Made by a program: the position numbers and the translations under genes
The notes under the pieces: model-generated
Told to the model about the DNA's origin: nothing
Database searches by the model: none
What the model saw: only the letters and a program-made list of their open reading frames with translations
Shown here: piece after piece, positions 3,066 to 44,353 of the stretch
Layout: the number at the start of each line of letters is the position of its first letter
Numbering within the stretch: the first letter of the stretch is position 1
Assembly: GCA_000004985.1 (NCBI GenBank)
Contig: GG738884.1
Reading direction: 5' to 3' (one strand)
DNA from: Naegleria gruberi
Taxonomy: Eukaryota
DNA length: 64,000 bases

Positions 3066-6000
3066 TTAGGCATAATCAAACTCTGTTTCAGAGGATTTGC
3101 TTTTCATTCTATTCTTGAGCCATTTAACTGCATGACGTAATCCAGTTGAGAAATAATTCTGAGTTGCATTAATGGCCAAATTGACATAACTTGATGGTTT
3201 CACACAGACAAGTGCAATAAATGCTGAAATTCTGAAAGCTAAACCAAAGATAACCATCATGTAAATGGTCATTCCCAATTCATTCTCTTCATATCCCATA
3301 TTCTTCAAACTTGTTGAAATGTCATAGATATCACTATATTTGGTAATTTCAATGAGATAGGCATTTTCATGACTGTAGGTAAGGAAAGATATCCATGGCA
3401 TGATATTGATAGGGAATGACATGGCTTTCAATGAAGGAAGAGGTGTTGTTGATCCACTGAATGTGTTAAATATGAAAACTAAAACAACAGCAGTCAATTG
3501 AGCTATTCCTGGTTGAACTATAATCGAAACTAGATATCCTAAACCATATGATGTCCAATAAACTAGTAATAGAACATAATAATATTCATAAACTGGTGCT
3601 CTTGGTGAAACTACAGTGTAATAAATTGTTAAAAAGACAATTGGTGCAATCAAGTTTACAATGAAAAGTGATAAATCTTTAGCCCAGAAATAACAGAAGG
3701 TACTTAATCCTGTTTGACTTTCTCTATTGAAAATTAAACTTTCCTTACCAAATGCTCTGAGTGCTGACATGGCAGCCATCAAAGCCATGCCAAGTGTCAT
3801 GAGTGAAGATGTGGCAGCAACTGGATCATCAACAGGTTGTTTACAAATTTCTTGTAAACCACTTGGACATAATTCATAAATTCCCTTTGGTGGAGGACCA
3901 ACATATACCTTATTATGGTAAACAAGACCCAAGAATGCTGAACAAAGGAAAATTAAGAAAAAGTCCAAAATTAAACTTGGCAAAGTTCTCAAAATTTGAG
4001 TGAAACTTCTCTTGAAACACATCCAGAATTGAGCAAAATAGGAAAATCTTGGATTTTTGAATTGAACTTGTTCTGGTTGATCATTAATTGAAGATTCGCT
4101 ACTAGTTTCGGTTGTTGTTTCTTCTTCGTATAAGTGTTTCTTCATTTCCCAAACTTCTGGTAATGAGATAGGTTCAAACTCTATATCTTTCTGACATGGA
4201 ACTAAACCTGCAGAAACATCAATTACAAAATCAGCCAAATTAGTTCCATTAGGTTTTGGAAATCCTAATTCCTTTTCAAAGTATTCTTCAACTCGTGTGA
4301 CAGGTCCAAGATAAATAGTTTTACCACCCTTTCCTAGCAATAGTAAATTATCAAACATGTTAAATATTTCATATCTAGGTTGATGGATAACAGTAATAAC
4401 TGTCATTCCTGATTTGGCAATTTCTTGTAAACATTGACAGACTTCCATAGATGAACTACTATCCAAACCAGAAGTAGGTTCATCAAGGAAGACTGCAATT
4501 GGACAAGCAACCAATTCAATGCCAACATTAACTCTCTTTCTTTGACCTCCTGAAATTCCACGTTTTTCTTGATCTCCAATTATGGCATGTCTAACATCTT
4601 GTAAATTCAAAACATGAATCACATCATTGACAATGGCGTCAATTTCCTTAGATGGTGTACTTGCATCAAGTCTGGTCTTTGCTGAAAAATATAAAGTTTC
4701 TTCTACTGTGCAAGAACTAATCATAATGTCATCTTGTGGGACGAAACCTAGCTTACTATTGTAATTCGAAAGGTTGTCTCTCTTTCCATTGACGAATACT
4801 TGACCTAATTGAGTTCCATAATAGGCACGATTTGAGAGTGTGGTAATGAAAGTACTTTTACCAGCTCCTGATAAACCCATGACAGCTGTCAATTTGCCAT
4901 GTTTAATTTCACCAGTGACACTATCCAAAACTCTCTTTCCAGAACCTTTCAATGTAAGACCCAAATCCTTGAAACCAATATCAACAGTAAATTGATTAGT
5001 TCTAAAACCAGACGGTTTGTCACTTGCCAACAAATTTGAATTTTCATTAACATCTTTCAAGAACAATTTAGTTCTCTTATGTTTCTTAACATTCTTCAAA
5101 CTATATCTAACATAAAATCTGAAAGCAGCTTCATAAGAAACATAAATAATTGCAATAATAATCATGATAATGACAACCATGGCCAATCCACCAAATTCCA
5201 TTCTATCACTTTTTGTTCCTTTTGGACAATTAGAAAAGAATGAACAACCAGTTGGTTTGATACTTCCCTCACGACAATAATAACCAGCTGGGCATAGGAT
5301 TTTCAAACTGGCATTTGGACAATAGTAAGATTCTGGACACAGCTTGTAGGTGAAGGATCCTTCTGGACAATATTGAGATTCTGAACAGTTTCTAATAGTA
5401 TGAGTGTTTTCACAGTAGAAACCTGCTGGACAGAGTGACTTCTTGTAGGATCCAGGTGGACAATAATCCATAGAATCATTCTTGAATTCACAGAGAGATG
5501 GTTCAATAACTGTATCATTTAAACAATAGGTATTTTCTGGACAATCCAGATTATCTGTGGTTGTTCCATTTTCCATAATAACTACTTGTCTGGCCATGTT
5601 ACAATAATCACCTTCCTTACATGATTCAATTCCAGTGAAATATGGAGTAGTATCACCAACCTTCAATTTCTTAATATAGTAACCAGGAGGAACTGGTAAA
5701 GGACGTTCATATTTTGTTGTACAGATGGTGCCATCTGGACAATCCTCACTTCTCCATAAACTACTGCCGAAACATGTTTGTTTTCCAAATTCTCCATCAC
5801 ACATCAATGGATATGGCATTTGAATGTATGGACAAATGTAACCACTTGGACATGGAATTCTAATTCCAGACAAACAGTAGCTCTCCACAAGACATGGTAT
5901 TCTAGTAAGCGATCTATAAATGAAATCTCCTGGATTTGTCAAAGTATACGGAACTACCAATGTGCTTCTGAAGAGATTACACAAATTACCTCTCAAACAT

Positions 6001-8270
6001 GAGCTTGATAACATGGCAAATTGATTTTCATTGAAATCTCGTGGAGGGGCTTGATTACATGCACCTGAGAATGATTTCAAAAAGACATTATCAGGATCTG
6101 TCTTTAAAGTATCACAGACAAGTTTGAATCTGTCATTGGCTTCAATTTCCCATCTCTTTCTAGTAATGGAAAGGAAGAGGAATTGATTGTTTTCTGAAAC
6201 GAATAAATCAATTACCTTTCCAAGTGCTAAGAAATCATTAACATTATTGGTCATGGCCACGTATCCTTGTTCAATTAAGGAAGGATCATCAGGAGTGGAT
6301 GAGGTTAAATTGAGTGAAATTGCAAGAACTTGCACATTTTTCTTCATTGAAATGTAAATATTTTCTTGCCAGTAACCAAAGAAGAAGGTAAATAAATCTT
6401 CCTGTTGAGTGAATGCTCCTGTGAAAATGTCAATTTCGCATCTGGCTTTTGAGGCATCTTCCATACATTGATCAGTGTCAATTTGTCCTCCTTTCAGATA
6501 GTCAAATTGGCAAATGACAGATGGATTCAAGTGTCTAGTTTCGTTATAAGCAGAAATACCATTCATTGTTTGATTAATGTCCATGAAACTTGATTTGATA
6601 ATTTCAACTTCATCATTCATTTCAGTAATGGTTTGAATATTGTCCAAACATTTACCATTATTCGAATGTTGATTGGCTCCACAATTGAAAGTTTGTGGTC
6701 TATTAGCTGTGTTTCCTTCATTGAAGTTAAAATTATAATTGACAAATTCTGGAATGTGATGTAAAACAAAGGAATACCTTTCGTTTGTTTCACCTTGTTT
6801 CTTCAAGCCCAGACCAATATATAAATTTTGAGAAGGTGGAAATTCTACATTCTCACATGTAGTTTGCAAAGAGAGTTTGATTGGCTTTCTCAATTTATCA
6901 AGAATTGGATAGGCAACAGTAATGGAAGATCCCTCAGGAGCTTGATAAAAAGTATTTAAATTATCTGAATTGACCAAATCAATCTTTCTATAAGAATCTT
7001 GGAACTCTACAATTCTAACTTGCTTTGAAGTGTATATCATAATAAGAGATCTTGAATTAGCCAAATGATTTCTTTCAAAAAATGTTTCTTGAATTCTCAT
7101 TGGTGCTGTCTTTGAAAAATTACCAAAATGAATAAAAGTTTCAATTCTGAAATCTTCATCACTTTCTACATCCCATTTCAATGGAACTGTCATGTAATTC
7201 TGATGCATTACAGTACCTCTAATGAAAATGAGTTGATATCTTGGTTTTTGACCGTCATCAATAATTTTGAGAACACCAACAGAGTAAACATTTTGAGTTT
7301 GAGTATCTCTGAACATTTTCAAATCCAGAACTTGTTTGACATTATCATCCAAACTGTAGAACCAATATCTGTAAAATTCTACCTGATAAAAATTAAACAC
7401 TCCATTAATGTTTAACTTTCCATATTTAGTTACTTGAACTAGGGCAATTTGATCTTGGTCATCTCCAATACCAGTCACTGAACCATATACTTCTCCTTTC
7501 AATAGTTCTCTATAACCAGGATACTTGTAATAAATAGTAAAACCACCATTATAGAAATCTTTAGTATTAACCATGACAACTCTTCCATTTTGATAAAATT
7601 GAAAGAGACGGCCAAAGGATTTACGTCCATTACTTGAATCAACAGCTCTAATAGCAACTACACCTTTACAATCATCTTCTAAAGGTGAATCAATTCCACC
7701 ACATTTGTACTGAAATTCTCCTTTGTTAACAACTTGAACATCTGAGAATATTTCAGGAGTTCCAGCAAATGGATTTGTTTTAGAGCACCACAAGTCAGTA
7801 AAAACAATTGGCATATCAGCAGTACCACATCCATCTTTTGGTCCTGTGTAGAGAGTTGGAGTATCATCATCGCCAATAACTCTTAATTTGATGTTAGAGG
7901 TTGCTCTCTGTTTTTGAAAACTTCTCTTATGTGAACTCTGTGAGTCTATAGCATCTCTCAAATGTTGATACAGAACAGAATCTGGTCTTTTGTAATCAGA
8001 TTGTTGTTCATTCACATGGCTTGCCTTAATGGATGATTCTTGTCTTATGAGAGTATGGTCTTGGAACAAGTATGGATTCATGGAAGGAGCAACAGCAGCA
8101 TGCACACTGCTGATAGTTACTCCTGTTTCTGATAACATGTTATTGCCATTATTGAACTGGTGAAATGTGAAGAAAAGTATCAAGAGTGTGGAAATGATGA
8201 ACAATCTCACACCATGAGAAATTCCGAAAGGATTTGTTGTGGTAGTATGTTGTCGAAGAAGAGGTACCAT
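3066..8270 (-). CDS. ABCG-type (White-like) half transporter fused to a roughly 1000-aa N-terminal extracellular Cys-rich domain. Layout: signal peptide, ectodomain, TM, NBD, 6-TM domain.
   Basis: 1734-aa single-exon ORF. Walker A GLSGAGKST, ABC signature ISGGQRKRVNVGIEL, Walker B VFLDEPTSGLD and H-loop VIHQP are present. The NBD precedes the C-terminal multi-helix TMD, which is the ABCG order. Upstream are a signal peptide (FIISTLLILFFTF), a roughly 950-aa domain ending in tandem CxxGxYC modules (CPPGSYKKSLCPAGFYCENT...CPEGSFTYKLCPESYYCPNASLKILCPAGYYC), and a TM helix (LAMVVIIMIIIAIIYV). Confidence 0.85.
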   Translation of the reverse strand: MVPLLRQHTTTTNPFGISHGVRLFIISTLLILFFTFHQFNNGNNMLSETGVTISSVHAAVAPSMNPYLFQDHTLIRQESSIKASHVNEQQSDYKRPDSVLYQHLRDAIDSQSSHKRSFQKQRATSNIKLRVIGDDDTPTLYTGPKDGCGTADMPIVFTDLWCSKTNPFAGTPEIFSDVQVVNKGEFQYKCGGIDSPLEDDCKGVVAIRAVDSSNGRKSFGRLFQFYQNGRVVMVNTKDFYNGGFTIYYKYPGYRELLKGEVYGSVTGIGDDQDQIALVQVTKYGKLNINGVFNFYQVEFYRYWFYSLDDNVKQVLDLKMFRDTQTQNVYSVGVLKIIDDGQKPRYQLIFIRGTVMHQNYMTVPLKWDVESDEDFRIETFIHFGNFSKTAPMRIQETFFERNHLANSRSLIMIYTSKQVRIVEFQDSYRKIDLVNSDNLNTFYQAPEGSSITVAYPILDKLRKPIKLSLQTTCENVEFPPSQNLYIGLGLKKQGETNERYSFVLHHIPEFVNYNFNFNEGNTANRPQTFNCGANQHSNNGKCLDNIQTITEMNDEVEIIKSSFMDINQTMNGISAYNETRHLNPSVICQFDYLKGGQIDTDQCMEDASKARCEIDIFTGAFTQQEDLFTFFFGYWQENIYISMKKNVQVLAISLNLTSSTPDDPSLIEQGYVAMTNNVNDFLALGKVIDLFVSENNQFLFLSITRKRWEIEANDRFKLVCDTLKTDPDNVFLKSFSGACNQAPPRDFNENQFAMLSSSCLRGNLCNLFRSTLVVPYTLTNPGDFIYRSLTRIPCLVESYCLSGIRIPCPSGYICPYIQMPYPLMCDGEFGKQTCFGSSLWRSEDCPDGTICTTKYERPLPVPPGYYIKKLKVGDTTPYFTGIESCKEGDYCNMARQVVIMENGTTTDNLDCPENTYCLNDTVIEPSLCEFKNDSMDYCPPGSYKKSLCPAGFYCENTHTIRNCSESQYCPEGSFTYKLCPESYYCPNASLKILCPAGYYCREGSIKPTGCSFFSNCPKGTKSDRMEFGGLAMVVIIMIIIAIIYVSYEAAFRFYVRYSLKNVKKHKRTKLFLKDVNENSNLLASDKPSGFRTNQFTVDIGFKDLGLTLKGSGKRVLDSVTGEIKHGKLTAVMGLSGAGKSTFITTLSNRAYYGTQLGQVFVNGKRDNLSNYNSKLGFVPQDDIMISSCTVEETLYFSAKTRLDASTPSKEIDAIVNDVIHVLNLQDVRHAIIGDQEKRGISGGQRKRVNVGIELVACPIAVFLDEPTSGLDSSSSMEVCQCLQEIAKSGMTVITVIHQPRYEIFNMFDNLLLLGKGGKTIYLGPVTRVEEYFEKELGFPKPNGTNLADFVIDVSAGLVPCQKDIEFEPISLPEVWEMKKHLYEEETTTETSSESSINDQPEQVQFKNPRFSYFAQFWMCFKRSFTQILRTLPSLILDFFLIFLCSAFLGLVYHNKVYVGPPPKGIYELCPSGLQEICKQPVDDPVAATSSLMTLGMALMAAMSALRAFGKESLIFNRESQTGLSTFCYFWAKDLSLFIVNLIAPIVFLTIYYTVVSPRAPVYEYYYVLLLVYWTSYGLGYLVSIIVQPGIAQLTAVVLVFIFNTFSGSTTPLPSLKAMSFPINIMPWISFLTYSHENAYLIEITKYSDIYDISTSLKNMGYEENELGMTIYMMVIFGLAFRISAFIALVCVKPSSYVNLAINATQNYFSTGLRHAVKWLKNRMKSKSSETEFDYA

Positions 8271-31101: not shown

Positions 31102-34100
31102 TCATTTAGCTGGCTTTCTTGCAGTATTAGGAAGACTCTTCTTATTCTTCTCTTCATTCATTCTGTCAATTTCTTTCTTCTTTTCCTCTTCAAGAGTTTG
31201 TTCCTTCAAAGCAATAATCTGCTTTTGATTTTCAACAAAGCTCTCTTTCATGGATGTGGCTAATGTTTGAAGCTTTTGCTCTGTTATTTCATTAACAAGC
31301 TTTTCAAAGGATTTTGATCTTTCAGCTCTTTTCTCTTTGATTTGGGCAATAAGCTTTTCATTTTCTTCCTTCTCTTTTGCTTCTCTGTCTTTTCTATCAG
31401 AAGGTGATTCTTCTCGTTTTTCAATCTTGAGCTCGGCTCTAGGGGAATGCTCTTTTTGAGAAAGAATACGAGCAAGATTTTGCTTAATGTACTTTTCTCT
31501 TGCTGCTTTTCCCTTATCGGCATGTTGAGCAGTTGTAGTTTCCCACTCTTCTGTCATTTGGTCAATCTTTTGCTTTTTAAGGTTGACTTCCTGGAAAATA
31601 ATATTAGGTGTTGTGGAAAACATGTCCATAGAGTAGAATAAAGTACTTGCTGAGCTATTTTCACATCCTTCCACGTATTGACTTGCGAGTAGGACTGGTT
31701 TGTCTTGTTTGGTTGGTATCTTGGGAGGCTCCTTTTTGGCTTTTTGAGTTGTTGCTGCAGGTTTCTTTGCTGATGCTGGTTTTTTAGCATCCTTTTTGGC
31801 AATCTTAGTATCAACAACTACTGGTCTTTCATCTTCGAGCTTGAGATCAGTGAGTGAAGTGTTATTTGCCCTTTCTTTCAAATATTTTTGAAATTCAATC
31901 CCAGCATTCTCAAGTCTGCTCTCAAGATATCTCAACGATGTATCTTCATCTATTGCACAGACAAGTAAATATCCAATTGCTAATGTTTTAGTACTTGGAA
32001 ACACTACCAAGTTGGAGACTACAATCTCACTTTCATTATCAAATGTTTGGAATTCCAACAAAGATGTTGTACTATCATTTTCAACTTTAAATACAGACAG
32101 CTTAATAGGAATACTCTCACTAAGGAGGAGCCTAAAGCCCAAGTTGGCCTTCTCACCAGAATCAACTCTATACCTAAATAACTCTCGTTCCTGATTTGTG
32201 AAATATCTTCCCTGAAGTGGTAAAGCTTGTAAAGAGAGTGACTTGGCTACATCTAAATCGAAAACATCATTCTCTGATATTGTTTCTAAGGAGTAAGTGG
32301 TTGCTTCTAGATCTCTGTTAGGGCAAGCATAGCAGATTAGAGAATATTGCTGAGGACTTGGGAACAGTTTCACAGGGAAGATTCTACCATTGATTGATTT
32401 CACAACAGCTGTAGTCTCATTGTTAACAAGCATTAGATGAGTGAAGGGAAGAATGGAGATATCATCCACCAGTAATCGAGCACTAAATACTCCTTCCTTA
32501 TCAATTATTAATTGGTGGCTAGAAAGGTTTTGATAAATAAAAATAGTACATTATTCAATACTTACATGCTCCAAACTTTCCACTCGTTATTTTTGTGAGT
32601 CGGAGATGATAAGGCACCAGTTCTTTGTATGGATTGACTGAGTTTTGTTGTATAAATATCTTCTTGTTTACCAAAAGTTAATGGCTTTTCGCTAATAAAT
32701 TCGACATATTGATTCTCAATATTCGTAAATCTTATTTCGAAAATGTCAAAATCATCTTTACATGGAAGAGTTACAGGGAGGATGCTATCAAACCCAGAAA
32801 TTGTAAAGTCATAAATTAGTTTGCTAGGAGTTAGTTTCTTCCAATTACTGGCCTTTTGAATAGACACTTTTGGCTTTACTTCATCCTTGATTCCCATTAC
32901 CCGTACGAATAACCTAGATGTTTCTGTTACATAGAAAACAATTGGGCTAGTGGTGGTCACATGTTTTCCAAGGAAGGCAACTGTTTTAAATTGTGTAATT
33001 TCATGTGCAACATATACGCAGTCAAAGTAGTCTTGCAGTTCTTCCAAGTCAATCCAAAAATCTTTCATTCTTTTTTCAATTCTTCTATCTTGATAACAGA
33101 ATCCAATTTCAATTTCAAAATCTGCTGTCCAAATAGAAGAATTCTTGTAAGAGTATTTTCCACCCCAAGCAACATCATTTGAAATAATTCTTAGTAAAGT
33201 ATGACCTTTGAATACAGAAATATCCTCAATTCTGAATAAATTATCTTTTTTAAGTCCTTGTGATTCTATATCTACATCTTTTTTACATTTTAAAAACATT
33301 AGTTTTCTCTTAGTTTGATCGCAATCCATTGGTGCCCTACAAAGATATTTAACTAAACTGAAGGTAGATTTCCATTCCTTGTGTGATTGAAGGGAAAGTG
33401 TCAGAGGAGAGATTACATCTAGAATACTTTCACATGAAACTGGTTGCATGGAAAAGTCAGAAAATAGGCAAGAGAAGCACCACAGAGGATCTGTAAATGC
33501 CAAATGTTCTTCTCCATTTGAAAGAGCAATAATTCCTTTCAAAATTATTGAAGGCCAGAATTCATCATAGGGAGAAATTGGAAACATTATTTTACCATTT
33601 GCATCATGTGGGAGCTTATCATCTACTATTACAATTCTTTCTTTTCCTTTGTAACGAAGTTTAATGTAGTATCTTCCCCATGGTGAGATATCAGGTAATA
33701 CATCACTACCTGGTCGTTTTGGCCATATTCTTTCCCAAAGATAGGATCCAAAAGGAATCATTTCTTTGCATTCCTCAATTTGGTAAAGAGCTGAAACGAA
33801 TGCCTTGGTCCACCCTCCTTTGTTAGAAATGTCAAGAACTTTGGTGTATTTTTCAAAGTCTTCCACAACAATTTCTTCTTCATCACAATCCAAAGTCAAT
33901 TCTTGTTGAACAGGAACTGGTTCCTTTTCTTCAACTTTTTTAGTTTTTGATTTAGTTTCGGGAACTGAAGATTTTGGCGGTTCTTTTGCTTTTATCCTCT
34001 CGTAGTAAGGATGGGCTGGGAAGAGATCTCTAGATATCCTTGGTTCCCATTTTGATTTGATTGATTTCCATTCCTTGACTTGAGAAGAAAATTCCGAACA

Positions 34101-34418
34101 TTTTTCGTTGAACACTATTTCACTAGAATCCTTTGCAATAACATCTTTAAATGCATCCTCTGTTGTAGACCCTTTTTTCTTACTATTTGATGGAGGTCTC
34201 TTATTTGTTTGAGCAGATACTTCTTCAGGATCTCCCAATAATTGTTTATCCCTCTCCATTAATTGTTTTAAAACTTCCTCATTCCACTCTGGAAATACTT
34301 TTTCCTCATATTCACTACTGGAGTATATCGTATCGGAGAGAAGAGTGATCTCAACTTTGTCATTCTTTTTCCCTCCTTTGGATGGTGCTTTCTTTGAGAG
34401 TGAGGGTGATTTCGACAT
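31102..34418 (-). CDS. Calpain-like (CysPc-like) domain protein, probably a catalytically inactive pseudoprotease, with a C-terminal charged coiled coil. Two exons: join(31102..32518,32566..34418).
   Basis: A 47-nt intron (32519..32565, AT|GTAAGT...TTTCTAG|C) joins the two ORF-track ORFs in frame (...EWKVWSI|HQLIIDKEGVFSARLLVDDISILPF). The block WGRYYIKLRYKGKERIVIVDDKLPHDANGKIMFPISPYDEFWPSIILKGIIALSNGEEHLAFTDP aligns to calpain domain IIa ([48 protein letters not shown]). The catalytic QGxLGDCW motif is replaced by NKGGWTKAF, with no Cys. Total about 1089 aa. Confidence 0.55.
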
Positions 34419-34794: not shown

Positions 34795-36237
34795 ATGTCT
34801 GCAACAATAACATCAGCAGGCAATCATTCCCTTCAGATCACCATTCCCTCCTATCAGGTGAGGAATGATTATATAGTCTATCAACTTGTCCTCTCTCTAT
34901 TCAATTCTACAACTTTAGCCGTAACAAAAGAAATAACATGCAAGAAACGATATTCCGAGCTCAGAGATTTTCATACCGATGTTGTTTGCTCTCTTTTACC
35001 AAAAGATAAACAAGCAATTCTCAAGTTTCCTGCAAAAATTATGTTCGGAAATATGAAGAAGGAAACTATAGAGAAGAGACTAATGCTTCTCGAACAATAC
35101 TTTTCATCATTATTGTCTGTTTTAAATTGGGATGCAGATAAATATTCAGAGTTGAGAAATGCTATCGTAAAATTATTCGAATCTACTGGGACGCCCTATG
35201 TGAGCAAACAAACAAATAGTTTGATGGATAATTCTTTTGAAGAAAAATGTTATAAGGAATTAACTCATCTTCAATTATTGTTAAATGATTCCGAGTGTTA
35301 TTGGCTTCCTTTTTGTTCACCTTTTAAATATGCTAGGTCAACTATGAGTGTAACAACAAACATTTGTAAATTAGAACAACAAGCTGAAAAGGTGATACAG
35401 AAACTTTACAGTGCAATGGATGAAAAAAGCCTTCTTTTAAAAGCTCAGAAATTTGTAACTAATTTTGTGAGCAAAATGCATGAACTGACACTTAGCACTG
35501 CAACTCTCTTCAAGGTTCTACTCAATATGGAAGAAGCACAGGATCAGGAAAATTGCATTAATGACATAATTAATCAAGGAATACAACATTTGGAGGAAGC
35601 AACCAGAATGAAGAATGTGTTGAATAGAGATTATTTTGAACCAATGTGGAAACAAATTACAAAGGGAGATCTCAGCAAGGAAATCGTAATGGATTTTTAT
35701 TTAACTTTGGTATTGCTTGGAGTAAATCCAAAATATAGATCGAGCGATGTTCTACTTGCGGCCATTGATTTAGATGAAGAATTTTCAAAGGAAGCATTAG
35801 AATATAACAATAATTTCATGAATAGACAAGCTGGATTTGAGGATGAATTTAGCTATCTCAGTTTTGCACTTGATACTGATTCACAATCTACCTATGATGA
35901 ACCTGCCAGCAAATATCATCAAGTGGTTTCGAATATTTGGAATCAACTCGATATTAGAGTGGAAACAAGTTCGCTAGACAAGTTAAAAGACAGATTCGAA
36001 ATAGCAACAGAGGAATGTGAGAAAAAGACTTCTTTTTACATTGGATTATCACAAGCTCTCATCAAGGTATCAAAAACCATGTTGGAAATGAGAGGGAAAT
36101 TATCACAGACAGCTCTTCTTAATGTAATTCCTGAAATCAAATCAAGTTTAGAGGAAGTGCAAATAGCTCTTATTAGAATCCAGAAAAAGTGTGATGGATT
36201 TATTGAGCAACAAGATTTACGAAGTAATGGCAAGTAA
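34795..36237 (+). CDS. PX (phox homology) domain protein, sorting-nexin-like
   Basis: The N-terminal approximately 110 aa match the PX consensus: VYQLVLSLF...KRYSELRDFHTDVV..LP...FPAK.......ETIEKRLMLLEQYFSSLLSV (R-[YF]-S-[DE]-F..L...L...P.LP.K....E.R...LE.Y). The remainder is helical or coiled. Confidence 0.6.
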   Translation: MSATITSAGNHSLQITIPSYQVRNDYIVYQLVLSLFNSTTLAVTKEITCKKRYSELRDFHTDVVCSLLPKDKQAILKFPAKIMFGNMKKETIEKRLMLLEQYFSSLLSVLNWDADKYSELRNAIVKLFESTGTPYVSKQTNSLMDNSFEEKCYKELTHLQLLLNDSECYWLPFCSPFKYARSTMSVTTNICKLEQQAEKVIQKLYSAMDEKSLLLKAQKFVTNFVSKMHELTLSTATLFKVLLNMEEAQDQENCINDIINQGIQHLEEATRMKNVLNRDYFEPMWKQITKGDLSKEIVMDFYLTLVLLGVNPKYRSSDVLLAAIDLDEEFSKEALEYNNNFMNRQAGFEDEFSYLSFALDTDSQSTYDEPASKYHQVVSNIWNQLDIRVETSSLDKLKDRFEIATEECEKKTSFYIGLSQALIKVSKTMLEMRGKLSQTALLNVIPEIKSSLEEVQIALIRIQKKCDGFIEQQDLRSNGK

Positions 36238-36264
36238 AAACTCCGATTTTCATTATGATAAAAA

Positions 36265-39200
36265 ATGAAAGGTGGCAATCTCTCAGTATCTAAATTGGAT
36301 AATGACAGATACACTCAGCCACCAACAACACGATCACAACACACCATCTATTCAAGATCATCAACTCTTTTCATCATCATTCTAATAATTATTTTATTAA
36401 TTTCTTCCTTCTCGAGTCTATTCGTTCTCTCTCAATCGAACTATTGTAAAGATAAAACCTATCGATTCATCAGTGTTGTTCCTGATGAAGGTGATGCAAC
36501 CAATTCATTCAGTGGTGATAAATTAAAAACCTCCATCTCTATTGGCATTGATTATTTACGGGCTCAGGGAATTTTACCAACAGGAGTTTCCATTGAAAAT
36601 GTTTTTGTTGTTACAAAGAATGATTTATCGGGTGCTATTGAAAAGATGAGGAATTTAATTATGGTCAATGGAACAAAGGATGAAAGATATGTGGGAATTA
36701 TTGGAGCGTAAGTTTTTAAAGATGATTAATATTGATGATTATTAATGATGAATTTGTAATCGGAATTAAATGATTATATTCATTGATAATGATAACATCA
36801 TGTGGAGAATAGTTACTACAGCTATGAATCTTTGACGATTGCTTATGAAATTGCCTACGAATATCAAATTCCAATGATTTCGTATGGTTCTTCTACGTCT
36901 GTACTTTCGTATAACAGATGGTTTTATAGAGTGTAAGTTTTAGGAAGAATCAGAGATTATAATTGATTAATAGTATTCCATCTTCGTTAGCCATGACATC
37001 TGCAATGGTGGAATTTTTATATTCTTTGGAGTGGTCAACTATTTCAGTTTTGGCATCAAATGAGGTTTATGGAGTTGATTGTGCAAGGAATATTCAAGCA
37101 ACAGCTAAAGAAATTGGTATGACCATTGATAATGTATATTATTTCAAGGTTGGTGATCACCAAGAATTAGCAGATCGAGTTACAAAAATCAAAGAATCTG
37201 GAACCAAGGTGATTGTGACAATTATGACTTCAGATACTGATGCCACTTTTCTATTGGGAAAAATTAAGGAAATGCAACTCAACACTGAGGGATATATTTG
37301 GATGTTTGATGAAACTTTTGCCTATCAGCCTGGTATTTCTGCAAAGAATGTTTCACTCACATCTGATTCACAGGGAATGTTCTTTGTGGAATTGAATTCT
37401 GGGTTGTGGTCTAGTGATTTGTACTTTGTTGGAAAGTTTATGCAACAATATAATTATTCGAGTGTGGAAGAGACCTATTCACAAATTCAAGCTTTTGATG
37501 TAAGTATTATTAATGAAAATATAGAGTGATGTTAACGAATTACAGAGATTTGCATTCGACTCTGCTTTGAGTTTTGGTTATACTATTCGTGATATGTGTC
37601 AAAGTGGATTGGATCCAACTCATGGTGTTGCGATGGTTTCCTCTATTGATCAAGTATCATTTATTGGAGCTAGTGGAAAAGTTTCGTTTGACTCTTATGG
37701 AGATCGTTTGGGAGTTTATTATTCTGTAAATAATGTGGATGGAAACGAGGCCACCATTGTTGCTAAATGGAGCCAACGTGAATCTATAGTTTGGGACGAA
37801 TTTTTCTATGTAAATAGAACTCTCAGAGTGCCTTGGGGTAAAATCACAAATGTTCAAATCTTTTTGAATTCACCCCTTACAGGAAACAGATGGTTTTCAA
37901 TTCCATCAGTCAATCAGGTACCACCAGAACGTCACAGTCATACCATGTCTCTAGGAATTACAACAAATAGACTATATTTATTTGGAGGTAATTCTCAATC
38001 TAAACTTAATTTTGACATGTATTCTGATTTGTGGAAGTATGATTTTATCAGTGGACAATGGTCTAAAATGGAGGCTCTCGATGGATACTCTCCAAAGGGT
38101 AGAGAGGGCCACATAATGTGGACTGTTCAAGCTGGTGTCTATAGCACGGATGAAAGAATCATTATATTTGGAGGAAAGTCAGGTTCTTACACAGATGACA
38201 TGCTCGAATATTCTACTCTCAGATCTCAGTGGAGAACAATTTCTCCAAATTCATACAAGCCATTTGCGAGATACTCAGCCAAGATTGCTCAGTACAAAAA
38301 CAAAGTCTACATGTTTGGAGGTTTGACCTATAATGGTGTAAGAGATGATATGTGGATATGGAATAATGAGAATTATCAATGGAGTAAGGTTAACCAGACA
38401 TCCTCGGCTGTTTGGCCTTATGGTAGATATTCTCACTGTATGTCTGTTTATACATACAATGGAAATCCGTATATTTTACTTTTTGGAGGAAAAGGTCCAG
38501 CTGGTGAACCTTTATCTGACATGTGGCGTTTTGACATGACTCAAGAAACTTGGGCTCAAATAAGTCAAACAGGAGATGTTCAAGGAGCTGTGTTTGATTC
38601 TACATGTGTAGCCACTGATAAGTATTTATATGTATTACATGGAAAGACTGTAAAAGGAAGTCAACAAATTATGTTCAAGAAGGTAATGAGAGCTGACTTG
38701 CCGTTCACACAAACATCAGTCAAATGGAAAGTGACAGAGTCCAATCTCAGCGATCCTAGGTCAAATGTTGCTTCTGTTTTCTTTTCCAATTATATTATTT
38801 GGTTTGGTGGTCTAGGTCTAGATTATGACTTTAATGATTTTTATTCATTGAATGTCATTAATCAAAAGATTGTTAAAGTGAATAAGAACTTTTTTGCTCC
38901 TAGCCCTGTAGTAGCTCACACCATGTCTACCTTAGGTGCATCCCTTTACTTATTTGGAGGATATATTGGTGATGACATTCCTTCCAATCTACTCTACAAA
39001 TATTCTATTGCATCCGAAACGTGGTCTATTGTCGATACTCAAACTAAACCATCACAAAGATCATATCACACCCAAGTGACACTTGGTGATCGTATTTGGG
39101 TGTTCGGTGGTATTGAGTCTTCATCAAAAGTTTATTCTGATATTTGGACCTTTTCTGCCAGTGCTGATTCATGGACTCTTGTTGAGCCTAGAACATCTGC

Positions 39201-41848
39201 AGTACCTATAGCAAGATATAAGCATGCAATGACAAGAAATGAAACCCATTTGTTTGTAATTGGTGGTAGAACTCAAACAACTCAATTGACAGATATTTGG
39301 GCTTTTGATACAGAAACGAAAACTTGGTCGAAATTCAAGCAAATTATTACCTACGCCTATACAATAGATTGCTCTGCAAAATGGTTCTCTGCAGAAGAAA
39401 CAGGATCATACCCTGCTATTTTACTATTTGGTTGTCATGATTTTTCAGGTACGCCAACAGCTAATTATTACAAGGTTGAGATAACTGACGTTAACAATGA
39501 CCAGTTCAGGCTATCATACAGTACATTGTTTAGAGAAATAGAACCTAGGTCAGGGTTGGTAGCTGTCAAGTTATCAGGATTCAAATCAATGATATTTGGA
39601 GGTAGAATGGATCAAGAATTGTTTAATACCTTATTGCTTGTTGAGGGATCTACTGGAAACACAAGTGTGATTCTTCCTCCATTGACTGAGCATGAACTAC
39701 CTTCTGCTAGAGCCTACCTTTCCTATTCATTTATTGGAAATTCAATTTACATATTTGGTGGTGTTGGTGCACCAGAAGGAACTGAATTCATTTTACCATC
39801 TCTTAGAAATGGTGACATGTGGAAATATAATATTGGCAATGTTTGTAAAGGCAAAGATTCTACCAATTGTTACAAATGTGGACCAGGAACTTATGAAACC
39901 TATGGAATGTGCGAATTTTGTCAGCCAGGGTCATATAATGAGCAGTATGGAGCCATTGATTCATGTACAGCATGTCCAAAAGGATTTTACAGTGATGTAT
40001 ATGGAGCAAATCATGCTCAGTTTTGCCTTCCTTGTGAGTATGGTACCTATTCTGATAAGCCAGGAAGTACCTATTGCTTACCTTGTCCAGATGGAGCTGT
40101 TTGTCAACTTGGTGCTATCCAACCAGTCTATAACTATACAAAGATTGCTTACAGAAAATCAAATCAACCAGATGCCTACTTTTCCAAAGAAGTGGAGAAC
40201 AGTAATGCTATCAAAATTGAAGCTGGTATTATTGCATCAATTGCTGGCTCTCTTATTCTGATAGTGTTTTTCTGTTGGAAAGTTTTTAATATTCCAAAAG
40301 AAAACTGGATCAAGAGAATGGACTTTTTCTTTACTGAGAGACACAATAGATTAATGGGTACAATGATCAAAAGAAGATCAATTGTTGGAGCTTGTTACAG
40401 TTTTATTGTTTTGGTAGCGTTCTTGGCCTACATTATTGCACTTGTTGTCCCTTACTAGTAAGTACAATTATTTCGAATATTTTATTAGAAAATTTTATTT
40501 TAGCAATTACGGAAATTATGTGGAAAACAGAAGCTTGGTTCCAAACCTTGCTTTGGATGACGAATTCAAATCAGATGCAGTGATTAGCCTAAAAATTCTA
40601 GGTTTTAACGGTCGGTGCACTGAGGGAAATCAAACAATTATTGACAAGCCAATGAAATGTCAAGAGAAGCTGTCCATATTCCTGGAATCAATTGATTATG
40701 ACAATTCCACGAAAGGTAGTAATTTCGAATATGATTGTCAAATTGACGATGATGGAGCTGGTTCGAGAAGTTGTATTGTTTCTATGAGATTTACTAATTG
40801 TGCATTTGCCAAAGATAGAAAAACAGCAACTATTGGTATTAAGGTTGGTGGTAGTAATGCATTTGCCAATGGATATGAGTATCAAGTAGATTTTGCTTCT
40901 GCCTACATTGATGTTTATATGCCTGAAAAATTACCACAGAGATCAGTAATTAATGGCACAATTTACTCTGATGATAACACCTTCTTTAGAGGAACCAAAA
41001 CTCCAACCCAGGTCAATTTCCAATTAATTCAAAACAGATACACAATTCCATCTAAAAATATTAAGCAAACAGGCTATGTCATTGATTTCCAAGATCAGTC
41101 ACAGGGAGACGTTGTTGAATCTCTATCATTTAGTCACGAAAATGGCCTTTATTTTGTGTTGAGTTTTGAAAAGCTATCCACAACACTTGAATTAGTTCTC
41201 TCTGAGAAGAAGGTTATCTTTGTCTTTTTAACTGACATGCTTGCTTCACTTTCAGGTATTTTCTCATTGACAGCATTGACCATGTCAATAACTGAATTTT
41301 TCATTTTCCACTATAAGAGAATTAGAGCTAATTTGATTGCCTATAGAAAGAAACATGCCAGTATGGATACCAACTATTTATTGGACGAAGTAGTACTTCA
41401 GGGAACTGAATATCAAGCAATGAAGAAAAATCTCAATAGACAAGACGAAGCATTCTACGATGACATTACAATAGCCAAAATTTATCACAAGAAGGGAATG
41501 AGAAGAAATGTTGTGTACATTCCTTCCAATGCTCTAGAGGATGAAGAACTCATCGATGCTAACCAACATGAACTAGTCACTGAAAAACCACCCTCAACAG
41601 AAACCTACATGGAAATGCACGAGAATGCAGACGAATATGCACCACCAGTTTTAGCCAACAACCGATCTGTCTCAATTTTCTCCAAACGAAAGAAGAAGAA
41701 TTCAAAGTCTGAACTTGCAGAACCATTCATTACCGAAGAGGAAATGGATTTGGATGATCTTGTCAATGAGCAAGACAATAATTTCTCACTCAATGACATC
41801 AAAGGACCACTCACATCTTCAACCACAGCAGTACCTTACTACAAATAA
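36265..41848 (+). CDS. Large multi-pass receptor-like protein: signal anchor, ANF-receptor/PBP1 (Venus-flytrap) domain, about 11 Kelch blades, ephrin-receptor-like Cys-rich modules, at least 3 TM helices and a cytoplasmic tail. Five exons: join(36265..36707,36822..36932,36974..37499,37546..40457,40504..41848).
   Basis: Splicing: GC|GTAAGT (114-nt intron); exon 2 ...IPMISYGSSTSVLSYNRWFYRV ends GT|GTAAGT (41-nt intron); exon 3 ends GAT|GTAAGT (46 nt); exon 4 ends TA|GTAAGT (46 nt). All phases are consistent, and ORF-track ORFs 36265/36963/37567/40436 fall in one frame. The PBP1 signature ISYGSTS..LS...F.R..PSD-like is present (ISYGSSTSVLSYNRWFYRVIPSSLAMTSAMVEFLYSLEWSTISVL). The repeated LFGG/IFGG motifs count 11 (LYLFGG, IIIFGGK, VYMFGG, ILLFGGKG, IWFGGLG, LYLFGGY, IWVFGGI, LFVIGGR, ILLFGCHD, MIFGGRMD, IYIFGGVG). 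Cys modules: CYKCGPGTYETYGMCEFCQPGSYNEQYGAIDSCTACPKGFYSDVYG...CLPCEYGTYSDKPGSTYCLPCPDGAVC. TM segments: IASIAGSLILIVFFCW, IVGACYSFIVLVAFLAYIIALVV, IFSLTALTMSITEFFIF. Total 1778 aa. Confidence 0.7.
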
Positions 41849-41960: not shown

Positions 41961-43228
41961 ATGTCATCGTCAACCTCTGCTGTTGATGCCAAGCAAAATT
42001 CAAAGGCATCCGAAGAAGAACGACATGATCAAGTTTCCCTCGGAGAGTATTTTGTTGTGTTTACCTTTATGGCTTTCTCTCTATTGATACATTTGTACTT
42101 ACCATTCCCAAGTACCTATGTTTTCAAAGCCTACTTTATTTATTTTGTTTTCCAATATGCACTGGCTAGATTCTTACCTGGTACTATAGTAAAGGGTCTG
42201 CCTTTGGAGGATGGTACTGTGTTGGAGTATAATTGTAATGGACTGCAAGCTTACTTGATTACGTTATCTTTGTTTTTGGCTGGTGGACATGTTGGTTGGT
42301 GGAAGTACTCAATTGTCTATGATCACTTGTTGGAATTTGTGGCTGTTACTAGTATTTTCCATTGGTGTTATTGGTCAATTGTTTTTATCAAAGGAAGAAT
42401 GTTAAAGAAGAGAGAATATAATGATGGATTAATTAGAGAAGTTTGGTTGGGTGCTGAAAGAAATCCAAGAATTCTTGGAGTTGATTGTAAATTATTCTTT
42501 GATGGAAGACCAAGTTTACTCACATGGGTTGTTGTTGCATTCTCATATGCATCAGTTCAATATGAAAAGTATGGTGCCTTCAGTACTCCAATGCTTATTT
42601 ATTTAATCTTTTCATTCTTGTACATGTTGGATTTCTTTGTAACTGAGAATCAATTCATTACTGGATTCGAAATTTATCAAGAAAGATTTGGATTTATGTT
42701 ATCTTGGGGTAACTTTGTTTGGTAAGTAGTGACTATCTCAATACTCAATTGACCAAATTATTTAGGATGCCATTTGTCTGTACTGCTCAAGCTTATTATC
42801 TTATTGAGTGGAGTGAACTTCCAACATGGGGAAGCATTGCTGTTTGTCTTTTGTGGTTATTTGGTTATGTTGTTGCTAGACTTTCAAATGCTCAAAAGGA
42901 TAAATTCAAGAGAGAACCAAATGCTCCATTCTTGGGTATCAAGTCAAGGTATATTGAAACTCCTGAAGGAAAGAAGGTTCTTACAAGTGGATTCTGGGCA
43001 TTGTCTCGTCATCCAAATTATTTTGGTGAATTGGCAAACTCACTTTCATTCGGATTGATGTGTGGATTTGATAAGGGCATTTTCCCTTACGCTTACAGCA
43101 TTTTCATTTGGACCTTGTTGTTTACAAGATACGAAAGAGACCACAGAAAGATGGCTGTCAAGTATGGTGCCTCATTTGACAAGTACTGTAAAGAAGTCAA
43201 GTACAAGATCATTCCATATTTATACTAA
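41961..43228 (+). CDS. Sterol reductase of the ERG4/ERG24/7-DHCR/LBR family (delta14-, delta7- or delta24(28)-sterol reductase). Two exons: join(41961..42721,42766..43228).
   Basis: A 44-nt intron (42722..42765, TG|GTAAGT...TTTAG|G) joins the ORFs in frame (...SWGNFVW|MPFVCTAQAYY...). Multiple TM helices. Family signature GFWALSRHPNYFGEL plus the C-terminal ...YKIIPYLY are typical of sterol reductases. Total 407 aa. Confidence 0.8.
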
Positions 43229-43375: not shown

Positions 43376-44353
43376 TCACTCACAAAACAAGTTCAATTCA
43401 CCCAATTCATCATATTCTACTTCAGTTTCTTCACAGACCACTCTTGGCTTTGGATTCATAAAGTTTTCGTATTTTTCAATGAAAGAAAGTAGTCCGTTGA
43501 TATTCGAAACCGGTTCACCCCAAAGTTTAATCTCTTGCTTATTCGTTTCCTCATATGAAATTGAATATTTCCTTCTGAAAACCATTCTCCCAGCAAATAT
43601 TCTTTCATACATAAAACTTCTACTCCAACTCCTTGTTCTGCAAACATGTTGAGCAGTTAAAAATCTTTGAATAAGGTTTACAATTCCAAAGTCATCTCTC
43701 ATGTTGTTGTATACATAATTCCTCACAAATACAATGCTCTTTGGATTTTGTATAAGGGCTGTTTTTACGAGATCCTTAGTTAGAATGCTTGAATTGACGT
43801 ATTTGAGGGATTTTCCGTTTTGTTTGACAGCTGCCAAGGCTATTTTATAATCACTCTGTAATCTATGTGAAGCATCTCTCAAGTTTAATCCATTCAATTT
43901 AACACATTTCTTTACAAAATCCCCATTATCCCTTAGTACATCATCCCCAAATCCAAGAATGGCTAACTTTCTAATAGAACATTCAACTGCCACCTCCAAA
44001 ACTTCTATTTCCTTATCCAATGATGATAAATACAAAACCTCTCCTCTCGTCTTCTTCATTATACTCTTGAACAATTCTTGATTCTTACTAAACAATTGCT
44101 TTACAATAATTGCAGTGTCATACGAGCATCGATAGAAAACACTTCGTGTTCTCTTTTTCTTCCGAAAACAATCATCAATATCTCTGAAGAATTTTACAAC
44201 CTTTTCCATTCCCCAATTTTTGTATTCAACAACTTGATGTGATTCTTCTTTGAAATTGTTTTTCATTAATTGAAAATATTTGTGATGATGATAAAATTCT
44301 ATCAATCCAAGTGATTGAGAATCGAGTAGGCATACAACTGGTATTGCTGACAT
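43376..44353 (-). CDS. Hypothetical protein with DUF4116-like tandem repeats
   Basis: 325 aa. Repeats of the form DYKIALAAVKQNGKSLKYVNSSILTKDLVKTALIQNPKSIVFV resemble the DUF4116 repeat pattern. Confidence 0.45.
   Translation of the reverse strand: MSAIPVVCLLDSQSLGLIEFYHHHKYFQLMKNNFKEESHQVVEYKNWGMEKVVKFFRDIDDCFRKKKRTRSVFYRCSYDTAIIVKQLFSKNQELFKSIMKKTRGEVLYLSSLDKEIEVLEVAVECSIRKLAILGFGDDVLRDNGDFVKKCVKLNGLNLRDASHRLQSDYKIALAAVKQNGKSLKYVNSSILTKDLVKTALIQNPKSIVFVRNYVYNNMRDDFGIVNLIQRFLTAQHVCRTRSWSRSFMYERIFAGRMVFRRKYSISYEETNKQEIKLWGEPVSNINGLLSFIEKYENFMNPKPRVVCEETEVEYDELGELNLFCE

Follow-up and report, generated by a model that had tools for sequence, protein, structure and literature searches.

The gene at 36265-41848 (plus strand) of the window, the 64,000-nucleotide stretch of Naegleria gruberi contig GG738884.1 analysed here, encodes a protein that is most likely a small-ligand sensor with its output passing through a membrane module. 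The explanation that best accounts for the whole, to which we give about an even chance, is a five-exon, multi-pass membrane glycoprotein, a flytrap-Kelch-Cys sensor with an Erv41/PAC-like module and a conformational or ionic output. The protein would lie in the plasma or endocytic membrane with flytrap, propellers and stalk facing outward or into the lumen. The flytrap would close on a small amino-acid-like ligand, a rigid assembly of propellers and Cys stalk would relay the change to an oligomeric membrane module, and a conformational or ionic signal would result at the cytoplasmic face. The membrane part of this receptor is previously undescribed, and the overall design has never been studied before. 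Table 1 lists the features.

Table 1. Features of the gene and its product (window coordinates)
Feature	Position	Strand	Residues and remarks
Exon 1	36265..36707	+	aa 1-148 (split codon): N-terminal cytoplasmic stretch, signal-anchor helix, flytrap start; ATG ORF, GTAAGT donor at 36708
Exon 2	36813..36932	+	aa 148-188: flytrap lobe-1 core with putative ligand-contact Ser151, Ser175
Exon 3	36974..37499	+	aa 188-363: mid-flytrap including Y220, D300/E301; Pfam ANF_receptor
Exon 4	37546..40457	+	aa 364-1334: flytrap end, all Kelch blades, Cys repeats, TM0, cytoplasmic loop, TM1; Pfam
Exon 5	40504..41848	+	aa 1334-1781 and stop: module beta ectodomain, TM2, cytoplasmic tail; GTAAGT donor 40458, AG acceptor 40503
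Signal-anchor helix	36367-36435	+	aa 35-57 (hydropathy peak aa 37-55)
Venus-flytrap/PBP1 (ANF_receptor)	36460..37836	+	aa ~66-460; introns 1-3 inside
Twelve Kelch blades	37894..39837	+	aa ~480-1127; two six-bladed beta-propellers: blades 1-6 to 38826, 7-12 from 38827
Cys-rich stalk	39844..40104	+	aa 1130-1216; four CxxCxxGxY repeats and a terminal CxxCxxGxxC
TM0	40213..40281	+	aa ~1253-1275 (hydropathy 1256-1274); poorly conserved adapter helix, returning the chain to the cytoplasm; helix in predicted model
Basic cytoplasmic loop	40282..40386	+	aa ~1276-1310; (K/R)T-x-x-GG entry to TM1
Two-TM unit	40387..41293	+	TM1 aa 1311-1333 (hydropathy 1313-1331), beta ectodomain aa 1334-1568, TM2 aa 1569-1597 (hydropathy 1571-1592); intron 4 inside
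Cytoplasmic tail	41294..41845	+	aa 1598-1781, about 185-190 aa

On sequence evidence this is one real gene of five exons and not a chance ORF. From the start ATG at 36265 to a stop codon ending at 41848, the spliced CDS runs for 5346 nt without interruption and encodes 1781 aa (the initial annotation gave 1778). Its four introns (36708-36812, 36933-36973, 37500-37545 and 40458-40503; 105, 41, 46 and 46 nt) each have a GTAAGT donor and an AG acceptor. Orthologs, both annotated "hypothetical protein" and identical in domain order, are Naegleria lovaniensis C9374_003713 (1793 aa, 55% identity over 99% of the query) and Willaertia magna ABK040_008888 (1636 aa, 41% identity over 91% of the query). 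All four exon junctions align to full-length orthologs with no gaps, the exon 1/2 junction (IIGA/YYSYES) among them, and three introns sit at identical positions in N. lovaniensis (FYRV/IPS, QAFD/RFA, VPY/YNYG), where the locus is a single annotated gene in conserved gene order. A chance ORF is excluded by these gap-free junctions, shared introns and synteny, and the initial proposal of one gene across four short introns agrees with splice sites, open frame, ortholog junctions and intron positions alike. Since one 963-codon ORF (37567-40458) takes in the flytrap/Kelch junction, every blade, the Cys repeats, TM0 and TM1, the domain combination does not depend on splice predictions. The idea that two or more genes, for a flytrap, a Kelch and a membrane protein, were wrongly joined could draw on two very short introns (41 and 46 nt), but the single exon from flytrap C-lobe through two TM helices, the gap-free junctions against two orthologs with conserved intron positions, and an identical order in seven other proteins, some transcriptome-derived (P0054 Rhodelphis has the same parts on one transcript), leave such an artefact close to refuted and extremely improbable.

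The flytrap assignment made at the outset is supported: ANF_receptor (PF01094) matches aa 91-429 at 124.8 bits against a cutoff of 25.4 (E 5.6e-36), and PF13458 matches as well (E 6.7e-11). The best solved-structure relatives of aa 61-461 are mGluR4/7/8, CaSR and T1R (E 1e-13 to 1e-6). Four of the five mGluR-type amino-acid contact positions are kept, as S151 (codon 36820-36822), S175 (codon 36892-36894), Y220 and D300/E301; mGluR4 S159, T182, Y230 and D312 align with S151, S175, Y220 and E301, and the fifth position (mGluR1 D208) is Ser191. These residues are largely retained across flytrap-bearing relatives, and the flytrap, pocket included, is well conserved among orthologs. Because the contacts are kept, small-molecule or amino-acid sensing, as the initial annotation suggested, is predicted; we infer ligand binding from the four conserved positions only. 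Like the flytraps of class C GPCRs (mGluR4/7/8, CaSR, T1R), this one retains the Ser, Ser/Thr, Tyr and acidic positions with which those receptors bind the alpha-amino-acid moiety. Unlike those receptors, the window protein lacks 7TM_3, lacks NCD3G at threshold, places two Kelch propellers between flytrap and Cys stalk, and has an unrelated three-helix module as its membrane part. Nor does the protein have any 7TM, cyclase or kinase domain as its output.

Kelch matches to PF24681 (E 7.7e-113) and PF24981, the ATRN/LZTR1 propeller (E 1.6e-67), bear out the double propeller first proposed; its count of 11 blades gives way to twelve "hydrophobic-GG" motifs spaced regularly at ~50 aa. The strong PF24981 match sets these propellers beside those of the attractin, MEGF8 and LZTR1 type; attractin, too, is a membrane protein whose Kelch propeller lies outside the cell. 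Relative to all three, however, the window protein has two tandem propellers and another membrane anchor, and has no CUB, EGF, PSI, C-lectin or laminin-EGF domains. In the stalk, CxxCxxGxY motifs start at aa 1138, 1152, 1170 and 1190, and the Cys columns are nearly invariant across 41 relatives. The TNFR/ephrin-receptor-like repeats seen initially do score above cutoff for Ephrin_rec_like (PF07699), marginally in the window protein (23.5 bits, cutoff 23.1) and at 33-37 bits in the orthologs; a PF23091 match is sub-threshold. The ABCG-gene protein ~30 kb upstream contains CPxGxYC-type repeats, from which a common Cys-module toolkit had been proposed; that proposal is not supported, as Ephrin_rec_like does not match the ABCG-gene protein at E<=1e-3 and phmmer aligns nothing in it with the Cys repeats of the flytrap-Kelch gene.

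Hydropathy agrees with the three TM segments of the initial annotation and comes near its tail of roughly 200 aa. Its "multiple TM helices" belong to a conserved module with a predicted Erv41/PAC-like fold, which that first reading could not have recognised. Between TM1 and TM2 lies a 235-aa beta ectodomain, predicted to be disulfide-bonded. Every Cys past the signal-anchor (24/24) falls in a predicted outside segment, with none in the tail or in the 38 aa of the loop, which carry 9 K/R. Near-invariant residues flank the membrane on its inner side: D1289 (40321-40323; D in 96/97 family members) and H1296 (40342-40344; H in 94/97) in a D-x6-H pattern in the loop, and E1598 (41294-41296; E in 88/97) at the start of the tail. 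Together these form one cluster, the cytoplasmic mouth; a second lies at the post-TM1 "wrist" (N1338, E1341, P1347). The interface residues and six Cys of the module are near-invariant and TM0 is variable, the helix with the weakest conservation among the three (mean relative entropy 0.98); with this adapter helix an outside sensor could be fused ahead of a module whose N-terminus is cytoplasmic. At 1430 the window protein has Phe, and both orthologs have Cys. The tail has no Pfam domain and no recognisable signalling domain in the window protein; a block at aa ~1625-1685 is conserved in Naegleria and Willaertia by ortholog alignment, and the Naegleria species end in a PYY motif, which the annotated W. 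magna model lacks, as it does the N-terminal anchor.

The two-TM unit is predicted to fold like the lumenal domain of Erv41/Erv46 (ERGIC) and the PAC/TMEM206 channel, with a more distant predicted likeness to ASIC/ENaC/P2X. Pfam ERGIC_N matches 15 of 38 module sequences, always in the same segment (the basic loop before TM1) and always below the 27-bit cutoff; no other Pfam family matches more than two of the 38. The window protein and its orthologs have no ERGIC_N match, and COPIIcoated_ERV stays below Pfam thresholds throughout. The hhalign probabilities of the module profile are not significant (0.9% against ERGIC3, 0.6% against human PAC), the module HMM ranks ERGIC3 only 21st against ~1000 window-shuffled decoys, and a PDB profile search with the module found nothing. 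Compared with Erv41/Erv46 (ERGIC2/ERGIC3), to which the sequence match is thus sub-threshold, the window protein differs in its Cys pattern, ends in a long tail and begins with a 1250-aa sensor followed by an additional TM helix. The likeness to PAC/ASOR is one of predicted fold alone, with no detectable sequence similarity, and PAC reportedly has no homologs outside vertebrates and one hemichordate (PMC6663466). A precedent for an Erv-type two-TM module reused as carrier of another functional domain is PDI-C of plants and chromalveolates, with a thioredoxin domain inserted in the Erv41/46 scaffold (PMC4729789). PDI-C keeps its extra domain inside the lumenal part and retains clear ERGIC_N/COPIIcoated_ERV homology, whereas the window protein carries its sensor at the N-terminus, with an extra TM helix between it and the two-TM unit, and its homology is remote.

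As far as sequence comparison reaches, the core of Kelch, Cys repeats and membrane module is pan-eukaryotic, spread over many distant protists. The module family counts 298 representatives at E<=1e-3, or 98 if the cutoff is tightened to E<=1e-10; its full-length members carry Kelch in 36/41, Ephrin_rec_like in 35/41 and ANF_receptor in 5/41. Named taxa with the module are Naegleria, Willaertia, Acrasis, Entosiphon, Kipferlia, Blepharisma (a ciliate with many paralogs), Lapot, Rhodelphis, Difflugia and two orphan eukaryotes. The full domain order recurs in N. lovaniensis, W. magna, Rhodelphis marinus and four further assemblies, so the architecture, initially called unusual, is not a one-off. 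Ortholog identity and synteny place the host among the heteroloboseans (Naegleria/Willaertia clade), and not in Amoebozoa, the profile group first named. Directly after TM2, relatives carry TIR, EF-hand plus PX, or EF-hand domains.

Because of these cytoplasmic domains a signalling sensor is preferred over a pure trafficking protein. It is unlikely, if still worth weighing, that a diverged Erv41/Erv46 (ERGIC2/3) module makes the protein a cargo or sorting receptor, cycling between compartments while its huge lumenal N-terminal part binds glycans, proteins or small molecules as cargo according to pH, by analogy with Erv41-Erv46 or with propeller-plus-Cys-rich sorting receptors such as sortilin/Vps10. 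The Pfam and hhalign results above argue against this, no KKXX-type retrieval motif is seen at the C-terminus of the window protein, and a class-C-type flytrap with amino-acid contacts, together with the tails of the relatives, suits signalling better than bulk retrieval. Comparably doubtful is a ligand-gated ion channel, in which the two-TM/beta-ectodomain unit would trimerise like PAC, ASIC/ENaC and P2X into a pore. Flytrap and propellers would gate it in the way the amino-terminal and ligand-binding clamshell domains gate ionotropic glutamate receptors, and the mouth of the pore would be lined by the near-invariant Glu at the inner end of TM2, giving a preference for cations. PAC has Lys319 at its inner pore, a position that may not be equivalent.

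An adhesion or prey-recognition (phagocytic) receptor is decidedly improbable. Its propellers and Cys repeats would bind glycans or proteins on the surface of bacteria or substrate, with the flytrap accessory or vestigial and the membrane module merely an oligomeric anchor. The family core of Kelch plus Cys repeats, in which flytraps are a minority, the multiplied genes of Blepharisma and the attractin-type surface proteins with Kelch ectodomains would all fit such a role, but the pocket residues are well conserved among orthologs, and conservation of the module at its cytoplasmic interface far exceeds what an anchor needs.

To our knowledge, flytrap sensors have outputs of only a few kinds: seven-helix GPCRs, glutamate-receptor pores, and guanylate cyclases or kinases. 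The receptor gene in the window and at least seven relatives from distant protists couple a class-C-type flytrap (the N-terminal ANF_receptor, or PBP1, domain) to a different, undescribed membrane module, which points to a predicted further eukaryotic route from small-molecule binding to signal. This C-terminal module consists of a helix TM0, a cytoplasmic loop, TM1, a beta ectodomain and TM2. Its family extends across eukaryotic supergroups, counts about 300 representatives and matches no Pfam model, and no literature on it was found. The predicted fold connects the cargo receptors Erv41/46 with PAC/TMEM206, a channel that until now has been regarded as unrelated to them; the literature gives PAC no homologs outside deuterostomes. 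Should this connection prove real, PAC would have a testable origin and Naegleria, to which the brain-eating amoeba N. fowleri belongs, a predicted candidate environmental sensor.

Four long ORF segments in the same orientation, with short gaps between them, make up the receptor locus. Joining five exons across four introns (see table) yields a 5346-nt CDS with one stop, at its end, and a product of 1781 aa; the initial annotation had the gene's coordinates exactly, and its length of 1778 aa was slightly off. G+C is about 34% across the whole window. The closest proteins are C9374_003713 of Naegleria lovaniensis (P0001; 55% identity, 99% coverage) and ABK040_008888 of Willaertia magna (41%), so the host is a heterolobosean of the Naegleria clade and no amoebozoan. 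All four exon junctions (IIGA/YYSYES, FYRV/IPSS, QAFD/RFAF and VVPY/YNYG) are gap-free in a three-way alignment of the window protein with these two orthologs. The N. lovaniensis counterpart is annotated as one spliced gene of 1793 aa, its neighborhood is identical and syntenic (calpain-like (-), PX (+), receptor gene (+), ERG4/ERG24 (+)), and tblastn blocks in that genome have their edges at FYRV/IPS, QAFD/RFA and VPY/YNY, the positions of introns 2-4 here. Exon 4 by itself covers the last part of the flytrap, every Kelch blade, the Cys repeats and two TM helices, and the unusual domain combination is thus independent of splicing. A transcriptome-derived protein from Rhodelphis carries the same parts on a single transcript. 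Nowhere else in the window was a paralog of any part of the receptor gene found.

Positions of the receptor gene, its introns and sites, and neighboring genes in the window
Feature	Position	Strand	Remarks
ABCG-type transporter gene	3066-8270	-	1734 aa
Calpain-like peptidase gene	32562-34418	-	
PX-domain gene	34795-36237	+	480 aa
Gap between PX gene and receptor ATG	36238-36264		27 nt
Receptor gene	36265-41848	+	five exons
Intron 1	36708-36812	+	105 nt, GTAAGT donor, AG acceptor, frame restored
Intron 2	36933-36973	+	41 nt, GTAAGT donor, AG acceptor, frame restored
Intron 3	37500-37545	+	46 nt, GTAAGT donor, AG acceptor, frame restored
Intron 4	40458-40503	+	46 nt, GTAAGT donor, AG acceptor, frame restored
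F1430 codon	40790-40792		TTT
PYY motif	41830-41845		near receptor C-terminus
ERG4/ERG24-type sterol reductase gene	41961-42725	+	first ORF
DUF4116 protein gene	43376-44353	-	

By its domains the window protein belongs to the ANF_receptor, Kelch and Ephrin_rec_like families. Pfam upholds the proposed ligand-binding domain in full: ANF_receptor (PF01094) scores 124.8 bits against a cutoff of 25.4 at aa 91-429, spanning the whole domain (profile positions 6-352 of 353), and Peripla_BP_6 is likewise above cutoff. The best relatives among solved structures are ligand-binding domains of class C GPCRs, with mGluR4 (E = 1.4e-13) ahead of mGluR7/8, CaSR and T1R. In HMMER and MAFFT alignments mGluR4 S159, T182, Y230 and D312, the residues that contact the alpha-amino-acid group in mGluRs, correspond to S151, S175, Y220 and E301, invariant in the three orthologs and mostly retained in the flytrap-bearing relatives. 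By sequence alignment alone, four of the five positions of the class C amino-acid-binding consensus (mGluR1 S165, T188, D208, Y236 and D318) are kept, as S151, S175, Y220 and E301 with D300, while S191 occupies the position of D208. The retained contact residues make a small amino-acid-like ligand plausible.

Kelch families follow (PF24681 at 375.7 bits, with PF13418, PF13415, PF13964 and PF01344 all above cutoff), as does the attractin/LZTR1 propeller PF24981 at 228 bits. The propeller repeats of the initial annotation therefore stand, but its 11 blades become twelve, counted as hydrophobic-GG signatures spaced about 50 aa apart at aa 506-1102; judged by that count, they would be enough for two six-bladed propellers. 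The Ephrin-receptor-like Cys repeats proposed for the stalk are also present: four exact CxxCxxGxY motifs come after the blades (aa 1138-1198), and Ephrin_rec_like (PF07699) scores marginally above cutoff in the window protein (23.5 vs. 23.1 bits) and clearly above it in the two orthologs (37.4 and 33.2 bits).

Hydropathy places a signal-anchor at aa 37-55 and agrees with the earlier prediction of three TM helices beyond the ectodomain. Every Cys after the anchor lies in a predicted outside part, 19 of them in the ectodomain and the other 5 in the 239 aa that separate TM1 from TM2; the 38-aa loop, which has nine K/R, and the 189-aa tail contain none. The Cys distribution and the K/R-rich loop fit an out-in-out-in topology.

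Measured against the known receptor classes, the window protein has a sensor and a Cys-rich stalk like those of class C receptors. However, class C GPCRs are defined by 7tm_3 after flytrap and NCD3G, neither of which appears in the window protein at E <= 0.1, and have seven helices where this protein has three after the ectodomain; NCD3G gives only sub-threshold matches in 6 of 41 relatives. Receptor guanylate cyclases (natriuretic-peptide receptors) carry kinase-homology and cyclase domains, which are missing from the window protein's tail (Pfam, E <= 0.01), and ionotropic glutamate receptors have a PBP2-type domain split by the Lig_chan pore, whereas the window protein has neither Lig_chan nor SBP_bac_3. 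Without 7TM, NCD3G, cyclase, kinase or Lig_chan, it falls outside every known class of flytrap receptor. Attractin and MEGF8 combine a propeller with CUB, EGF, PSI, C-type lectin and laminin-EGF domains and a single TM; the window protein matches the PF24981 propeller only.

The module (aa 1236-1681) has no significant Pfam match. Word-indexed homolog searches with it returned only fragments of orthologs, and it took an exhaustive search by HMMER, with a profile of the orthologs, to bring out the family, which comprises 298 cluster representatives at E <= 1e-3, 98 of them at E <= 1e-10. The match is nearly always C-terminal, in proteins of 400-2500 aa. Among full-length members, Kelch occurs in 36 of 41, Ephrin_rec_like in 35 and ANF_receptor in 5, and the relatives P0016, P0024, P0114, P0039 and P0054 show flytrap, Kelch, Cys repeats and module in exactly this order. 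Named sources are Heterolobosea (Naegleria, Willaertia, Acrasis), Euglenozoa (Entosiphon), Metamonada (Kipferlia), ciliates (Blepharisma), Rhizaria (Lapot), Rhodelphis, Amoebozoa (Difflugia) and two orphan eukaryotes. The relatives' gene is already in databases as "hypothetical protein," all named members being annotated so or by their Kelch/Ephrin parts alone; the architecture and the membrane-module family are undescribed, literature searches having found no published description of either. PF25852.1 is listed in the precomputed Pfam matches of the two orthologs, P0001 and P0002, and our local Pfam copy lacks it for either of these or the window protein; the family might be a newly built model that covers part of the architecture.

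Conservation across 97 modules is lowest in TM0, consistent with a role as adapter helix. Ahead of TM1 stand D1289 (96/97), H1296 (94/97) and T1308-x-x-G1311-G1312, and after it N1338, E1341 and P1347. The beta domain is recognizable by six Cys and by FRG and TGY(H) motifs, and TM2 with its cytoplasmic end by G1581, G1585 and E1598 (88/97). Tails are short in most members; in some relatives signaling domains lie 60-250 aa beyond TM2, namely TIR (P0035), EF-hand plus PX (P0022) and EF-hands (P0121, P0064). The tail of P0036 extends a further 1150 aa or so, with several hydrophobic stretches. Position 1430, Phe in the window protein, is one of the six conserved ectodomain Cys in both orthologs and in 78 of 97 family members; the Phe leaves the beta domain of the window protein with an odd number of Cys (5). 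Its codon TTT is one base from TGT, and the substitution may have arisen by true divergence or be an error in the sequence.

With five sequences aligned, the predicted structure was of no use (pLDDT 42). A 38-sequence alignment gave a model at pLDDT 87.1 and pTM 0.74, made on the N. lovaniensis module (P0001 aa 1259-1702), which is 60% identical to that of the window. In it three helices, the middle one short, lead into a beta domain with some 12 strands, and a long helix comes last. In Foldseek searches with this model, PAC/ASOR structures take ranks 1-19 (E = 1.6e-10 to 1e-7, probability 1.00), and P2X and ASIC come next. The TM-scores are low (0.21-0.46) and rmsd is high, which we attribute to the placement of helices in a monomer model. 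The module as predicted has the Erv41/46 topology (two TMs, N-in/C-in, with a beta-sandwich lumenal domain of Erv41p fold) as well as the PAC structure (a two-TM subunit with a PAC-type beta ectodomain). A single module model matches both Erv41p and PAC/TMEM206.

Among Pfam profiles, ERGIC_N (PF13850) matches 15 of the 38 module sequences, all below its 27-bit threshold (best E = 7e-5) and always on the segment of KT-x-x-GG, TM1 and first strand, and any other family matches at most two; by Pfam it is absent from the window protein and P0001. COPIIcoated_ERV (PF07970) reaches E = 0.09 at best, in one ortholog only. With hhalign, the module profile gives probabilities of 0.9% against a single ERGIC3 sequence (confirmed as such by Pfam matches of 311 and 116 bits) and 0.6% against human PAC, whose sequence is that of 7jna_A. 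When the module HMM was run on ERGIC3 among shuffled decoys, ERGIC3 came only 21st of about 1000 (p ~0.02), and the module profile finds no match among PDB sequences at E <= 10. Given the insignificant hhalign and shuffle results, we do not claim sequence homology to ERGIC3 or PAC.

Our reading of the model is that the module probably shares its fold with Erv41/46 and PAC, and it may plausibly share an ancestor with the Erv family found throughout eukaryotes. The model further suggests that the orphan animal PAC channel and pan-eukaryotic Erv41/46 may have one fold in common and perhaps a common origin. Literature searches for a PAC-ERGIC link found no paper joining the two, and TMEM206 homologs have been stated to be absent beyond vertebrates and one hemichordate (PMC6663466). 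The membrane unit is like those of Erv41/46 and TMEM206, but the window protein is a member of the former neither by Pfam nor of the latter by sequence. Erv41/Erv46 form a heteromeric complex with COPII/COPI-dependent ER-Golgi cycling, and PAC is a trimer with a proton-activated anion current and a Lys319 selectivity ring, whereas the window protein is compared with both by sequence and predicted fold alone; its conserved E1598 near the inner end of TM2 is not equated with Lys319.

We are highly confident of the anatomy of the window protein, that is, its domain order and conservation. The whole package, a ligand sensor signaling via an oligomeric transducer of Erv41/PAC fold, we give about an even chance. 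In such a receptor TM0 would be an adapter helix that lets an outside-facing sensor precede a unit whose own N-terminus is cytoplasmic. Conserved residues sit at the wrist and the cytoplasmic mouth and not in TM0, which suggests that the two-TM unit does more than anchor, and the TIR, EF-hand and PX domains after TM2 in relatives argue for signaling at the cytoplasmic face. The relatives' tails, with this conservation pattern, lead us to favor the ligand-sensor reading.

Two rivals are to be taken seriously, and they assign the protein another output. A true ligand-gated channel would agree with the run of channel structures among the fold matches and with the EF-hands in relatives; Erv41 as top match and the lack of any sign of a pore make it unlikely. 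It is unlikely, too, that the protein is an Erv-like cycling cargo or sorting receptor, since a flytrap pocket and signaling domains in relatives' tails speak against one, despite the Erv41 and ERGIC_N signals, the short tails of most members and the PDI-C precedent (PMC4729789). Less likely than either are an adhesion or prey receptor, which we consider very improbable, and an artefact of the gene model, which is barely credible. The boldest version of the channel, in which the module is a functional pore and the family both an unrecognized pan-eukaryotic class of ligand-gated channels and the missing link between PAC/TMEM206 and Erv41/46, seems to us quite unlikely. If true, a class-C-type flytrap with Kelch propellers would gate a two-TM channel of PAC/Erv41 fold, and the orphan animal PAC/TMEM206 would be shown to descend from an ancient Erv41/46 scaffold.

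As for the window protein's own tail, it has no Pfam domain at E <= 0.01, and a block of it is conserved among Naegleria and Willaertia. A PYY motif lies 1-8 residues before the C-terminus in three Naegleria-type sequences (VPYYK, TPYYRSEQ and TPYYSEKDDQL), including P0001 and the relative P0004, and is absent from the Willaertia C-terminus; it could serve as a di-aromatic signal for sorting or ER export.

Among the neighbors, the ABCG-type protein has ABC_tran and ABC2_membrane in its C-terminal 600 aa and an N-terminal extension of about 1100 aa without a Pfam match, which ends in CPxGxYC-type Cys repeats (aa ~800-1010) with a TM helix immediately after. In style these repeats recall the receptor's CxxCxxGxY repeats but show no detectable homology: in the ABCG protein neither Ephrin_rec_like nor, by phmmer, any similarity to the receptor repeats is found, so the shared Cys toolkit suggested earlier finds no support. 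The PX gene ends so close to the receptor ATG that the receptor promoter and 5' UTR must overlap it; the two genes are likewise tight in N. lovaniensis, 58 nt apart. A fusion of the two was considered and rejected, the sole candidate splice reaching a stop after seven codons, and the N. lovaniensis annotation, with two separate genes, also speaks against it. On the other side of the receptor, the first ORF of the sterol reductase gene covers profile positions 58-279 of 432, so that further exons probably follow.
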